From a virus (Duplodnaviria; Heunggongvirae; Uroviricota; Caudoviricetes), in IMG/VR virus record IMGVR_UViG_2917886563_000003: DNA of 6,487 nucleotides. The stretch is one strand, 5' to 3'. The notes beneath the pieces were generated by a model. The model worked only from the letters and a program-made list of their open reading frames with translations. It made no database searches and had not been told where the DNA came from. Position 1 is the first letter of the stretch, and the number at the start of each line of letters is the position of its first letter. Both the position numbers and the translations under genes were made by a program. Shown here in pieces: positions 1 to 6,487 of this stretch.

Positions 1-2
1 TG

Positions 3-353
3 GGAAGCACGGGGAAACCGGCTAATTTACTGTATCACTCGGATCAAGGCAGTCACTATACCAGCAGGAATTTCAGACAGTTACTGTGGAGATATCAGAT
101 AAAGCAAAGCCTGAGTCGCCGGGGAAATTGCTGGGATAACAGCCCAATGGAACGGTTCTTCAGAAGCCTGAAAACAGAGTGGGTACCGGATAATGGCTAC
201 GCGAATTTTAGCGAAGCCAGCACGGCAATAACGAATTACATCACAGGATATTACAGCCAGCTCAGACCTCATCAATATAATGGTGGTTTGACGCCGAATG
301 AATCAGAACGATTGTTCTGGAAAAACTCTAAAGCTGTGGCCAGTTTTTGTTGA
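3..353 (+). CDS. IS3-family transposase OrfB (DDE integrase catalytic domain), C-terminal part; 5' end lies outside the window
   Basis: Translation from base 3 reads [62 protein letters not shown]...[24 protein letters not shown]. The [10 protein letters not shown] and [19 protein letters not shown] blocks are the conserved D and E regions of IS3-group OrfB. The ORF track lists only 147..353 because it starts at the first Met, but the frame is open to the window edge. Confidence 0.88.
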
Positions 354-361
354 CCACTACA
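326..361. repeat. Putative right terminal inverted repeat of the IS911-like element
   Basis: Terminal sequence ...ctgtggccagtttttgttgaccactaca ends in CA and is similar to the IS911 end as recalled. The left end is not in the window, so the inverted-repeat pairing cannot be verified. Confidence 0.5.
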
Positions 362-370
362 CTCGATCAG

Positions 371-3682: not shown

Positions 3683-3707
3683 AGACCTCAACTGAGGTCT
3701 TTTTTTT
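3683..3707 (+). terminator. Rho-independent terminator immediately downstream of the tRNA-like 3' end
   Basis: Stem AGACCTC (3683-3689) / GAGGTCT (3694-3700) with loop AACT, followed by a run of seven T (3701-3707). Confidence 0.7.
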
Positions 3708-3974
3708 ATGCCTGAAATTCACGCCACACAAATCTTTTCCGCTGTTTTTTTCCAACTAACGTCAACCTGGTTCAATCCATATTAAATCCCTTAAGAATAC
3801 CGAACCAAGTATGTTTGCGCTTATCTATTAAGGATTCGGCTCTTTCAGAAAATCTAATCCATCCTCCAGGCACAATATTTATTGCGATCGTGCTCGCATC
3901 GTGGACAATGTTTAATCATAAGTAATATTTACATCAATGAAATCAATGATTTCTATTATGTCACGGAATGGAAA

Positions 3975-6197
3975 ATGGACAGCAATACATTGGGATTCAC
4001 TTCATACTGGCGCAACTCCTTAGCTGACGCCGAATCTGGTAAAGGAACGTTTTCACGTAAAGATATAGATTCATTCATTCGATGGATAAATATCACTGCA
4101 GGGCAGTTGGATGACGAGACTATTCGGGCATTTTTTGACGGTGAAGGGGAGTCGGTAAAAACCGTTGAAGTCGTGTTACGGCCCCAGGTGTGGAACCGCA
4201 TAGTAAAGCATGGCAAAGAGCAAATGGCAGGTGCCCCCGCAATTATCACGCCACTGGTTACCTCCGCTCTTCTGAATAGGGAAGGTTTTTTGTTTCCTGC
4301 TGCTTCAGCCACTATTCCCCGCGATCTGCTTGAACCTCTCCCTTCCGGTCATTTTTCTATTGGTGAGTTGGCTCAATATGACAAATACAAAACCACGCAT
4401 AGCACAGCCACCATTAATGAAGATGAACCAGAACATTACGAAGAAACTGACGAAGAGAAAGCGGAACGCCATGCCAGGTATCGTCAGCATTGGCAAAATT
4501 ATCTTCAACAGTCAGATAACCTTTTAAGAAACGTCGCTGGAAATTGGGTCGCTACATCTGAGCCATACGAACGGGCTGGATACGGTTATATTGTTAAAGC
4601 TAGCCAGCATGTAGGGGCCAGCGTTCATATCCTGCCTATGTATGACCATCTTCTGATGAGTCAGGTTAAGGTTCCGCTATTAACGCGTTTTGCCTCAAAC
4701 GAAATGGCTCCAGTGGAGCCACTTCTCGCTAAGAATGCGATGTTCTGCGAACGTCTGGGGCATTCCGGCGATAAGTTTCCGCTGGCAGTGGCGCAGCGCG
4801 ATGCCCTGAGCCATTATCTGACTCAACAGCAGGGTGATATGCTCGCTGTCAACGGTCCTCCGGGAACGGGTAAAACTACGCTGGTGCTTTCTATTATTGC
4901 CACCGAATGGACAAGAGCCGCACTTAATCAAACTGAACCTCCTGTAATTATTGCCACATCGACTAACAATCAGGCCGTCACCAATATTATTGAAGCCTTT
5001 GGAAAAGATTTCTCTACTGGTTTTGGCGTAATGTCTGGGCGTTGGTTGCCGGAGGTAATAAGCTATGGCGCTTATTTTCCGTCTAAAAGCCGTCAGGTTG
5101 AGGCAGCGAAGAAATACCAGACTGAAGATTTTTTTAACCGCGTTGAATCCCAGGAATATCTGGAAAAAGCCCGGGCCTTTTACCTTGAAAAAGCGGAGGC
5201 GGCGTTTGGAGCTGGAGAGTGCAATTCGCCAGAGCATGTAGTGACGCTTTTGCATGAACGTTTAACTTCACAGTTTATGCAACTTCAGCAAATCGAACCC
5301 GCATGGCGCAGACTCAATGATATCCGCCATGAACAGCGAGTCATCAGTGAGAATCTCGACCAGTATCTTCAGGACAAAAACACACTTCTTCTCAATATTG
5401 GTAATGAAATTTCACTTTTGGCCAGAGGTAAAAAGCAGTGGCAGCAATACCGTGCCGATGAGTCGCTTATGTATGCATTTTTGTCATGGCTCCCTGCTGT
5501 TCGTGCTAAACGCCATTACCAGATTAACCTCTTCCTGGACTCTACGTTCGGCACAAGAATGACAGCGTTCCAGGGAAATTGTCCCGAAGATATTGATAAA
5601 TTTATCGATAGTTTGATCGCTAAAGCACAACAAGAGCAGGCGGTGTGCCAACAGAATATCAACTTTGCGCAGGACATAGCCCGAAGCGAAATGGAAGCAG
5701 CAAAACAATGGCGCGGGTTGACTTATGCTCTGGGCTACAGGGGAGACGATGAGCTGAACCTCGCCGGAGCGGACGAGCTTGCCGATACTCAGATTCGTTT
5801 TCCAGCGTTCTTGTTAGCGACTCATTATTGGGAAGGTCGCTGGCTGATGGATATGGCGGCAATCGATAACCTGCAAAAAGAAAAAGGAATTACCGGGACA
5901 ACTATCGCCGAGGCTCGTTGGCTAAGAAGAATGAAACTTACTCCTTGTGTGGTAATGACCTGCTACATGTTGCCTTACCATATGAACAGGAGAAAATCTT
6001 TTGGTGGGGACAGAACATCGGATAATAATTATTTATATAACTTTGCCGATTTACTGATTGTCGATGAAGCAGGGCAGGTACTCCCGGAGGTTGCTGCGGC
6101 CTCTTTTGCATTGGCGAAGAAAGCACTGGTGATTGGCGATACGGAGCAAATAGCTCCAATCTGGAATGATGTAGCCCCCAGAAACACCGGACAGTAG
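3975..6197 (+). CDS. Large P-loop NTPase with SF1B (Upf1/Dna2/RecD-like) helicase motifs I, Ia, II and III and an uncharacterised N-terminal region; apparently 3'-truncated by the IS2-like insertion (740 aa as read)
   Basis: Open frame from 3882 (TTG) or 3975 (first ATG, preferred) to TAG at 6195-6197. Walker A GPPGTGKTT at 4854-4880; motif Ia-like PPVIIATSTNNQAVTNIIEAF; Walker B/motif II LLIVDEAGQ (DEAGQ at 6063-6077); motif III VIGDTEQIAPIW at 6129-6164. The ORF stops 10 codons after motif III with no motifs IV-VI, and the stop lies within or at the edge of the IS2-like left terminus. Confidence 0.8.
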   Translation: MDSNTLGFTSYWRNSLADAESGKGTFSRKDIDSFIRWINITAGQLDDETIRAFFDGEGESVKTVEVVLRPQVWNRIVKHGKEQMAGAPAIITPLVTSALLNREGFLFPAASATIPRDLLEPLPSGHFSIGELAQYDKYKTTHSTATINEDEPEHYEETDEEKAERHARYRQHWQNYLQQSDNLLRNVAGNWVATSEPYERAGYGYIVKASQHVGASVHILPMYDHLLMSQVKVPLLTRFASNEMAPVEPLLAKNAMFCERLGHSGDKFPLAVAQRDALSHYLTQQQGDMLAVNGPPGTGKTTLVLSIIATEWTRAALNQTEPPVIIATSTNNQAVTNIIEAFGKDFSTGFGVMSGRWLPEVISYGAYFPSKSRQVEAAKKYQTEDFFNRVESQEYLEKARAFYLEKAEAAFGAGECNSPEHVVTLLHERLTSQFMQLQQIEPAWRRLNDIRHEQRVISENLDQYLQDKNTLLLNIGNEISLLARGKKQWQQYRADESLMYAFLSWLPAVRAKRHYQINLFLDSTFGTRMTAFQGNCPEDIDKFIDSLIAKAQQEQAVCQQNINFAQDIARSEMEAAKQWRGLTYALGYRGDDELNLAGADELADTQIRFPAFLLATHYWEGRWLMDMAAIDNLQKEKGITGTTIAEARWLRRMKLTPCVVMTCYMLPYHMNRRKSFGGDRTSDNNYLYNFADLLIVDEAGQVLPEVAAASFALAKKALVIGDTEQIAPIWNDVAPRNTGQ

Positions 6198-6487
6198 CTG
6201 TATCTCCAGATAAGAGATAGGCTTGAATATATGTCTAACACTAACGCCAATTTTGAGATGACCGGGATCCTGTTAGGGCAAGAAGTCCGTAAACGTAAAA
6301 CTCCTCAGGAGAAAATCGCCATTATCCAGCAGAACGATGGAGCCGGGTATGAATGTCTCCCATGTCGCCCGCCTGCATGGTATCCAGCCCAGCCTGCTGT
6401 TTAAATGGAAGAAGCAATATCAGGAAGGCAGCCTCACCGCCGTTGCGGCCGGAGAGGAAGTCGTTCCTGCTTCTGAGCTTACAGCTG
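6172..6487 (+). mobile_element. Left-hand portion of an IS3-family, IS2-group insertion sequence; continues beyond the right window edge
   Basis: The region 6172-6230 contains TAGCCCCCAG...CTGTATCTCCAGATAAG, resembling the IS2 left terminal repeat as recalled (TAGACTGGCCCCCTGAATCTCCAGACAA). It is followed by an orfA-like reading frame whose product aligns with IS2 InsC. The left boundary is uncertain, somewhere in 6167-6195. Confidence 0.75.
6258..6487 (+). pseudogene. IS2-like transposase OrfA (HTH DNA-binding protein), apparently frameshifted; 3' end outside the window
   Basis: From ATG 6258 (or 6231) the frame reads [26 protein letters not shown], then runs into [22 protein letters not shown] (stop 6402-6404). 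From 6337 the +1 frame reads [50 protein letters not shown] to the window end. Both halves match IS2 InsC as recalled ([65 protein letters not shown]), implying a 1-nt insertion near 6336-6340 (GATGGAG). Confidence 0.65.

Follow-up and report, generated by a model that had tools for sequence, protein, structure and literature searches.

An attR junction at leuX in a draft Escherichia contig that ends inside two different IS3-family elements

The window, the whole 6,487-nt stretch of DNA analysed here, is best read as one draft contig that crosses the attR junction of a phage-like element of about 12.85 kb. The element would lie in the 3′ end of leuX, with the ancestral leuX flank, including yjhR, on its right. 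Two unrelated IS3-family elements would have inserted separately, one at codon 260 of a tape-measure-like gene and the other after codon 731 of yjhR, and these two insertion sequences (IS) would also mark the places where the assembly broke. We put the probability of this whole account at about 0.85. The apparent bracketing of an integrase and a helicase gene by two IS is, in large part, a product of assembly, the window being a whole draft contig.

The window matches PDHX01000035.1 end to end over 6,487 bp; the sole mismatch is at position 15, where the stored copy has an N. That contig belongs to Escherichia cryptic clade II strain E4736, whose draft genome consists of 43 contigs assembled from Ion Torrent reads 35-400 nt long (PMC6639607). 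Matches to the features of the window have E-values of 1e-150 to 0, and chance resemblance therefore does not account for them. The layout is simple: an IS911-like end at 1-361; an interior of 5,805 bp at 362-6166; and an IS2-like end at 6167-6487. The features, in order, are as follows.

1-361, plus strand: 3′ end of an IS911-like IS3-family element (OrfB C-terminus, 3-353; right terminal inverted repeat, 333-361); the contig starts inside the element.
362-1429, plus strand: tape-measure-like tail gene, codons 260-614 and the stop of a 614-aa gene, its 5′ part removed by the IS at 361/362.
1477-2154, plus strand: intact gene for a Dit-like (distal tail or baseplate) protein of 225 aa (PF21821 Dit_like, E=2.4e-27; phrog_817).
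2235-3506, minus strand: intact gene for a tyrosine recombinase (integrase) of 423 aa (PF00589 Phage_integrase, E=1.2e-16, residues 232-386; DUF6538; phrog_1).
3628-3669, plus strand: attR core, a 42-nt remnant of the 3′ end of tRNA-Leu(CAA) leuX, aligned to leuX of record L002; one acceptor-stem G is absent.
3683-3708, plus strand: native Rho-independent terminator of leuX, a hairpin with a run of T after it, found by terminator scan; L002 has the same sequence behind its intact leuX.
3975-6166, plus strand: yjhR (Mokosh type II, MkoC), codons 1-731, with the N-terminal region and first helicase domain (Walker A, DEAG) retained.
6167-6487, plus strand: left end of an IS2-like IS3-family element (left terminal repeat, 6167-6194; orfA start from 6258); the contig ends inside the element.

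A sequence-only reading of this DNA had described about 5.8 kb, with an integrase, an att-like core and a helicase-like gene, between two IS ends. All three lie within the 5,805 bp. The interior also carries two phage tail genes that the earlier description lacked. The same reading took the integrase and helicase genes as cargo bracketed by the IS, and here it does not stand: attR separates the two genes, which are parts of different entities, and each IS interrupts a gene. The attR core splits the interior into a phage-like element on the left and a chromosomal flank, with the leuX terminator and yjhR, on the right.

The integration site is clearest in E. coli CE0021a (L015). There, a 43-nt perfect direct repeat occurs at 8390-8432, the end of an intact leuX, and again at 21244-21286, 12,854 bp away; the element runs over those 12,854 bp from the intact leuX to the end of the integrase region. 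A tRNA-integrated element is marked by an intact tRNA gene on one side and a remnant on the opposite side, and the window holds the attR copy only. Its core is no functional tRNA. ARAGORN detected no RNA gene in the window, nor did Rfam at E<=0.1. The missing G of the core was considered as a sequencing error and rejected, because the same deletion recurs in three other assemblies (L012, L007, and L017). The leuX terminator that follows has been described (PMC2811032). Its T run is T8 in the window (3701-3708) and T7 in L012, L001, L002, L006, L007, L010, L016, and L017; L008, which has a different sequence after its attR, was left out of this comparison.

To the left of attR, the tape-measure-like gene, the Dit-like gene, and the integrase gene would be the last genes of the leuX-integrated element. 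Intact versions of the tape-measure-like gene in L001, L006, and L010 are 98-99% identical to the part in the window. This part matches phrog_16051, tail length tape measure protein (E=2e-27), and gave no Pfam match. The Dit-like gene is labelled 'phage baseplate protein' in RefSeq genomes, and its product is 52% identical to proteins of Phapecoctavirus-like phages. At the domain level, the 423-aa integrase groups with the tyrosine recombinases through its C-terminal Phage_integrase domain. The identical protein is encoded on 12 contigs, and in every case the Dit-like gene adjoins it.

These genes may come from an undescribed family of small (~12.9 kb) phage satellites with Phapecoctavirus-like helpers, a speculative proposal to which we give little weight. 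Such elements have a DNA invertase, an O-like replication initiator together with iterons, one capsid-like gene, and two genes for tail assembly; among phages, the nearest relatives of these two tail genes are found in Phapecoctavirus-like myoviruses of 145-150 kb. The capsid assignment comes from a weak PHROG match, a Pfam Phage_cap_E match in a variant, and a RefSeq label; the element's capsid-like protein had no tblastn match among 50,697 phage records. A literature search found no description of a leuX phage satellite or of a Phapecoctavirus satellite. If the proposal were true, the Phapecoctavirus-like myoviruses would be candidate helpers, and the window would show a satellite disabled by an IS, beside a likewise disabled Mokosh gene; the bracketing by IS would still be incidental.

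To the right of attR lies yjhR. The part in the window is 94.7-99% identical to annotated 'helicase YjhR' genes and matches the PADLOC model MkoC (E=1.1e-249) over model positions 1-711 of 1136. Full-length YjhR (L002) matches the same model with 1,468 bits over positions 1-1135, and its Pfam domains are AAA_11 (273-347), AAA_12 (795-969), and PLDc_2 (1028-1153). Because YjhR in the window ends at residue 731 of 1,171, the second helicase domain, AAA_12, and the PLD nuclease are absent. YjhR has been named as a fused Mokosh protein (bioRxiv 10.1101/2022.12.12.520048), and Mokosh defence depends on the ATP site of the helicase as well as on the PLD active site (bioRxiv 10.1101/2022.05.11.491447). 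The truncated protein would presumably be non-functional; judged from its coding sequence, yjhR here is a disrupted gene that provides no working Mokosh system. An otherwise rare yjhR of the full-length type would here be inactivated by an IS, which adds one more example of IS-mediated loss of a defence gene.

The left end of the window was correctly recognised, from its sequence, as the right end of an IS911-like element. A full 1,256-bp copy in E. coli H8 (L003, 1607-2862) matches positions 1-361 with its 3′ end at 99.7% identity; it is an IS3-family element of a type found in many E. coli chromosomes and plasmids. The translation of 3-353 matches the Pfam domains rve_3 (E=6.9e-12), rve (E=4e-9), and rve_2 (E=1e-7), as expected of an IS3-family DDE transposase. 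The right terminal repeat, TGTAGTGGTCAACAAAAACTGGCC (window 333-361, reverse strand), resembles that of IS911. The full copy begins TGTAGTGG... and ends ...CCACTACA; it has TG...CA ends and two ORFs joined by a -1 frameshift, and is annotated 'IS3 family transposase, programmed frameshift' (1680-2854). The window has the right end only.

Comparison with IS911 itself shows the same two-ORF frameshift organisation in the full copy, the same length class (1,256 versus 1,248 bp), and near-identical terminal repeats (TGTAGTGG... in the left element, TGAAGTGG... in IS911). OrfB is 72.7% and OrfA 67.9% identical between full copies, and the OrfB part within the window is 76.5% identical to IS911 OrfB. 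However, DNA identity to an annotated IS911 copy (L013) is just 71.6% over 1,256 bp, and 76.7% for the part in the window. By the ISfinder convention, copies of one IS species share roughly 95% DNA identity or more. IS911 itself is ruled out by the 71.6% identity between full copies; on the evidence of its sequence, the left element is a separate, IS911-like IS species. NCBI annotation gives it the generic label 'IS3 family transposase', neither IS911 nor ISEc52.

The assignment of the right edge to the left end of an IS2-like element was also sound. Positions 6167-6487 are 98-98.1% identical to the left end of a full 1,336-bp copy (L004, 2502-3837) in E. coli 873.10, which has 15 copies of this element. 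This end opens with the repeat TGATGTAGCCCCCAGAAACACCGGACAG, and the OrfA fragment matches Pfam HTH_Tnp_1 (E=7e-11). The full copy, annotated 'IS3 family transposase, programmed frameshift' (2593-3800), begins TGATGTAG... and ends ...AAGATCA; an HTH OrfA, a DDE OrfB, a frameshift, and TG...CA ends place it in the IS3 family. Relative to that copy, the window has an extra A at 6333-6334 that shifts the orfA frame, and this 1-nt insertion may be a sequencing error. IS2 is similar in length (1,331 versus 1,336 bp) and in its terminal repeat pattern (..GCCCCC.GAA.C.CC.GACA); protein identity is 75.4-76% for OrfA and 62% for OrfB. DNA identity to the annotated IS2 of L005, by contrast, is 69.2% over 1,167 aligned bp, and the 321-nt part in the window gave no blastn match to IS2 at default settings. 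IS2 itself is ruled out at ~69% DNA identity.

Draft contigs commonly terminate in repeats. The present contig would stop a few hundred bases inside each IS because each is a genomic repeat that the assembler was unable to read through. An independent assembly (L012, GCA_005781225.1) has one contig that spans window positions 344-6185 and ends 18-19 nt inside each IS, with one homopolymer difference in 5,842 aligned bases, across both IS junctions and attR. Because that contig carries the same junctions and breaks off in the same IS, the junctions are real and both IS behave as assembly-breaking repeats. Both are presumably multicopy in E4736, judging from where the contig ends. Homopolymer errors of Ion Torrent sequencing may explain both the extra A at 6333 and the T8 run at 3701-3708, which leaves fine details of the contig uncertain. 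Such homopolymer discrepancies are what might be said for an assembly chimera, with unrelated pieces joined at the 43-nt att core or at the IS ends. This is very improbable: L012 independently agrees in sequence over attR and the two IS junctions, the order of element, attR, and downstream sequence is found also in complete genomes, and the 43-nt repeat is far shorter than the reads.

The breakpoints of both IS are exact to the base against intact genes. With a slash for the breakpoint, the intact tape-measure-like gene reads ...GGAAGTAT / CTCGATCAG, and intact yjhR reads ...CTGGAAT / TGTCTACCCG. Each IS would be a simple insertion, with the remainder of the split gene beyond its far side. On the left, GGAAGTATCTC would directly precede the IS911-like left repeat TGTAGTGGCATAGTG, giving a 3-bp CTC duplication. 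On the right, the IS2-like right repeat ...GGAGGGTCAAGATCA would be followed by a duplication of 3-5 bp (TGGAA or GGAAT) and then by TGTCTACCCG of yjhR. Both interrupted genes would be disrupted by their IS, and the element in E4736 probably can no longer make the tape-measure-like protein.

The IS might instead be the endpoints of IS-mediated deletions or inversions that removed or displaced the 5′ portion of the tape-measure-like gene, the remainder of the element, or the 3′ portion of yjhR. There is a precedent for IS-associated deletion at this gene: in K-12-like strains yjhR is a C-terminal remnant beside an ISEc52/IS911-type element, with attR and the N-terminus gone. Just 13 of the 5,426 complete E. 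coli genomes keep the yjhR 5′ part. The outer flank of each IS, moreover, lies beyond the contig, and it is only in that outer sequence that such rearrangement and a pair of simple insertions differ. Nothing in the data speaks directly against rearrangement, which fits them equally well; simple insertion, however, is the commoner outcome, and we consider rearrangement unlikely, at perhaps one chance in five.

The locus itself varies as the sequence-only reading expected when it called the region an insertion hotspot with neighbouring gene content that differs greatly between strains. leuX is a known integration hotspot. In some genomes (L002), leuX directly abuts an intact yjhR. A different island occupies the site in Escherichia sp. 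E1V33 and E. coli Ch1, and in E1V33 an intact, 98.4% identical yjhR lies behind it. CE0021a and EC13 have a second integrase after attR. No record among all complete E. coli genomes covers >=80% of the window. Conservation of the same IS copies at these positions in distant strains, which would have spoken against a hotspot, was not seen: neither IS junction (361/362 or 6166/6167) occurs in 5,426 complete E. coli genomes, and an exact search for the right junction found none in the GTDB species representatives.

These observations also bear on the idea that the 5.8-kb segment is a composite mobile unit, in which two IS together move the integrase gene, the att core, and the helicase gene. IS3-family ends do lie on both sides in the same orientation, and at least two assemblies share the pair of junctions. 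But the two IS differ in DNA, in protein, and in terminal repeats: blastn between the full copies gave nothing beyond a 12-nt chance match, and the transposases are 21-27% identical to each other, so that one transposase is not expected to act on both outer ends. Because they share no nucleotide similarity, the two elements are unable to recombine with each other or to form a composite transposon. Furthermore, both interrupt genes that run unbroken in other strains; the usual order of element, attR, and yjhR at leuX is kept, collinearly, in the interior; and the segment with its junctions is absent from the 5,426 complete E. coli genomes. A composite unit has almost no probability. The further idea of the sequence-only reading, that more IS copies could recombine to mobilise or delete the block, is generic speculation. 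Two independent insertions beside one attR, cut off by the assembler, would account for the layout.

A more general caution follows for draft genomes. Since assemblers halt at repeats, a whole draft contig very often looks 'bracketed' by IS, and IS ends at both contig edges are not to be taken as the sign of a mobile unit.

Composite transposons such as Tn10 and Tn5 use two copies of the same IS. Like them, the window shows a DNA segment with an IS end at each side; unlike them, the two IS are unrelated in DNA, neither the same IS twice nor a pair with matching ends, and both have inserted within genes of the resident locus.

Full-length YjhR fits the MkoC model end to end and joins a Upf1-like (COG1112) helicase to a C-terminal PLD nuclease, as in Mokosh type II. 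The copy in the window is homologous but incomplete, and lacks the combination of helicase and PLD nuclease in a single protein.

IS insertions at leuX, att remnants derived from tRNA genes, and defence genes broken by IS are all already familiar. In leuX islands such as KpLE2 of K-12, as here, a tyrosine integrase acts on the leuX 3′ end, and integration duplicates the end of the tRNA gene as a direct repeat; the variable region, in which IS are frequent, has yjhR at its far border (PMC2617782). The present element is a different one, 12.85 kb long with capsid-like and tail-like genes, and is distinct from the P4-type intB island; its integrase gene lies at the attR end and is transcribed inward.

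In reverse orientation, the 6,487-bp contig PDHX01000035.1 (assembly GCA_004745245.1) is the window from first base to last, except for an N at position 15 in the stored copy. PDHX00000000 is the accession of an intertidal-sediment strain, E4736, of Escherichia cryptic clade II; its single-end Ion Torrent reads (35-400 nt) were assembled into 43 contigs (PMC6639607). Because the window is a complete draft contig, both of its ends are points where assembly stopped. A 5,841-bp contig from an independent assembly (L012, GCA_005781225.1) equals window 344-6185 with one homopolymer difference, and ends 18-19 nt into each of the insertion sequences (IS) at the window edges. 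It thus covers both junctions and stops inside each IS, so the junctions are real and the contig ends repeat-caused. The window contains the following features:

1-361, 3' end of an IS911-like IS3-family element (99.7% identity to the full 1,256-bp element)
362-1429, tape-measure-like gene, codons 260-614 of 614 aa, intact in other strains
1477-2154, gene for a Dit-like tail/baseplate protein
2235-3506, minus strand, tyrosine integrase, 423 aa
3628-3669, attR core, a 42-nt copy of the tRNA-Leu(CAA) leuX 3' end with one G missing
3683-3708, native leuX terminator
3975-6166, first 731 codons of yjhR, the helicase-like gene
6167-6487, left end of an IS2-like IS3-family element (98% identity to the full 1,336-bp element)

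No complete tRNA is present in the window. The complete E. coli CE0021a genome has these same integrase, Dit-like, and tape-measure-like genes at the right end of an element of 12,854 bp (L015 8433-21286) with a perfect 43-nt direct repeat at both borders: the left copy is the end of intact leuX, beside ahr; the right copy is the sequence at window 3628-3669. Such direct repetition is the standard signature of integration into a tRNA 3' end, and the window's copy is therefore an attR, the right-hand attachment junction. No element separates leuX and its terminator from an intact yjhR (1,171 aa) in E. coli 2020CK-00188, where they directly adjoin. Together, the end of the CE0021a element at attR and the leuX-yjhR adjacency elsewhere assign the integrase to the element on the left side of attR and the helicase gene to the resident flank on its right side. 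The sequence-only reading had the two genes as cargo bracketed by IS ends; they are instead different entities on opposite sides of attR, not joint cargo.

That reading also proposed an insertion hotspot whose neighbouring gene content differs between strains, and here the comparison agrees. Besides directly adjoining yjhR, leuX or attR is followed by other arrangements: Escherichia sp. E1V33 and E. coli Ch1 carry a different island, a shorter leuX remnant, and then intact yjhR; CE0021a and EC13 carry a second integrase after attR, not yjhR. Published descriptions likewise treat leuX as a hotspot of integration, where each genome carries non-homologous inserts (PMC2617782). The missing G of the att core (window 3664-3665, acceptor stem; CTTCGCACCA in place of CTTCGGCACCA) is real, because it recurs in the leuX remnants of L012 and of two comparison sequences, L007 and L017, some with different upstream islands. 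This suggests that the G-lacking remnant by yjhR is an old, decaying attR, reused by successive integrations.

Two other small differences probably reflect Ion Torrent homopolymer errors, not biology: the T8 run of the leuX terminator (3701-3708), which is T7 in L012 and in comparison sequences L001, L002, L006, L007, L010, L016, and L017; and AA versus A at 6333-6334, a frameshift in the IS2-like orfA relative to the full copy. We leave both uninterpreted, since homopolymer-length differences are of the type that Ion Torrent data produce.

The labels given earlier to the two edges, IS911-like right end and IS2-like left end, are correct. Translation of 1-361 yields rve integrase-core domains, and an inverted repeat ending in GCCAGTTTTTGTTGACCACTACA closes the element at 361. 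Its terminal repeats are nearly those of IS911, with OrfB 72.7% and OrfA 67.9% identical; however, full-length DNA identity to an annotated IS911 copy is 71.6%, so it is not IS911 itself. The full element is present in many E. coli chromosomes and plasmids. The right-edge element opens with the repeat TGATGTAGCCCCCAGAAACACCGGACAG and encodes an OrfA with an HTH_Tnp_1 domain, 75-76% identical to that of IS2; at ~69% DNA identity it is not IS2 itself. Up to 15 copies occur in one E. coli genome.

IS911-type right ends can provide an outward −35 element. An outward-facing TTGACC lies at 349-354, within the right repeat of the IS911-like element, and a mechanical ORF from TTG 347 runs in frame into the truncated tape-measure-like gene. 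A full IS2-like reference copy in E. coli 873.10 (L004) sits between partial and complete integrase genes, beside tRNA-Gly, and has a 15-nt direct repeat, CCTCTTCGAGCCAGA, at 2487-2501 and 3838-3852, much longer than an IS3-family target duplication.

The most likely origin of the arrangement is insertion of two unrelated IS. A leuX-integrating phage-like element would have come to lie next to yjhR; the two IS would then have inserted independently, one in the tape-measure-like gene and one in yjhR; and assemblies would have broken within both IS, because both are repeats. On the left, the tape-measure-like gene is cut exactly between codons 259 and 260, and intact yjhR continues as TGTCTACCCG at the point where the IS2-like element begins. 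Possibly, each IS is instead the scar of a deletion or inversion, the far sides lying outside the contig. Both junctions are missing from all 5,426 complete E. coli genomes, and the right one also from all GTDB species representatives, so the insertions are lineage-specific. At least 80% of the window is found in none of those complete genomes. The IS ends enclose 5,805 bp with five features. Between the two IS there is no DNA similarity, and their proteins are only 21-27% identical; mutual recombination or transposition as a composite is therefore not expected.

Full-length YjhR matches the PADLOC MkoC model (single-protein Mokosh type II) end to end at 1,468 bits, with AAA_11, AAA_12, and PLD nuclease domains, and has been named in the literature as a fused Mokosh (bioRxiv 10.1101/2022.12.12.520048). 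Mokosh defence depends on the ATP site of the helicase as well as on the PLD active site (bioRxiv 10.1101/2022.05.11.491447). The window copy ends just past helicase motifs II and III (LIVDEAGQ...GDTEQIAP); its lack of AAA_12 and PLD leads us to infer a non-functional product. Few complete E. coli genomes have the 5' part of yjhR (13 of the 5,426), and in K-12-type strains just a C-terminal remnant is left, directly beside an ISEc52/IS911-type element. In E. coli ECMA0423 a paralogue 61% identical to YjhR/MkoC lies downstream of tRNA-Phe by ~2 kb, and in E. albertii one of 58% identity (L050) lies at about that distance downstream of tRNA-Leu(CAA); a similar paralogue is present in a Shigella flexneri genome (S. 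flexneri and E. coli loci: L040 and L041). Variable sites linked to tRNA genes thus repeatedly carry Mokosh type II genes. Across Enterobacterales there are homologues of ~70% identity; no tRNA lay within 6 kb at any of six loci examined, four of which held such homologues.

The 12.85-kb element is too small for a phage; it may be a satellite of one, or a prophage that has been much reduced. It encodes a DNA invertase, an O-like replication initiator, and capsid-like, tape-measure-like, Dit-like, and integrase proteins, along with many small ORFs without family match. Relatives occur in ~594 of the 5,426 genomes. Four copies of a ~22-28-nt repeat (ACCC..ACAGAA..CTGTTA), spaced 23-48 nt apart (L015 10602-10744), are probably origin iterons; they occupy an unannotated gap between the invertase and initiator-like genes, ~1.5 kb upstream of the latter. 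Most related elements match window 362-2789 at 96-98% identity and diverge beyond (break near 2777-2789), so the integrase's catalytic C-terminal part is common to them and the N-terminal ~240 residues are swapped. Among these relatives, RM14721 (L061) lies not at leuX but beside a truncated LysR-type gene near paoD, consistent with exchange of a site-specificity module.

Among phages, Phapecoctavirus-like myoviruses have the closest relatives of both tail genes. Over 1681-2057, the Dit-like gene shares 82-84% DNA and 52% protein identity with 'tail fiber protein' genes of such phages, whose genomes are 145-150 kb. The tape-measure-like protein matches a PHROG tail tape-measure family, and its best phage matches (30% identity) fall in the same group; the capsid-like protein had no phage match. 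This kinship hints at a helper relationship, and the element could be an undescribed satellite. It is the one lead worth recording. The arrangement as a whole is unremarkable: an att junction at a known hotspot, two ordinary IS, and contig-end framing. All of its components are of known kinds, most of them already annotated in public genomes.
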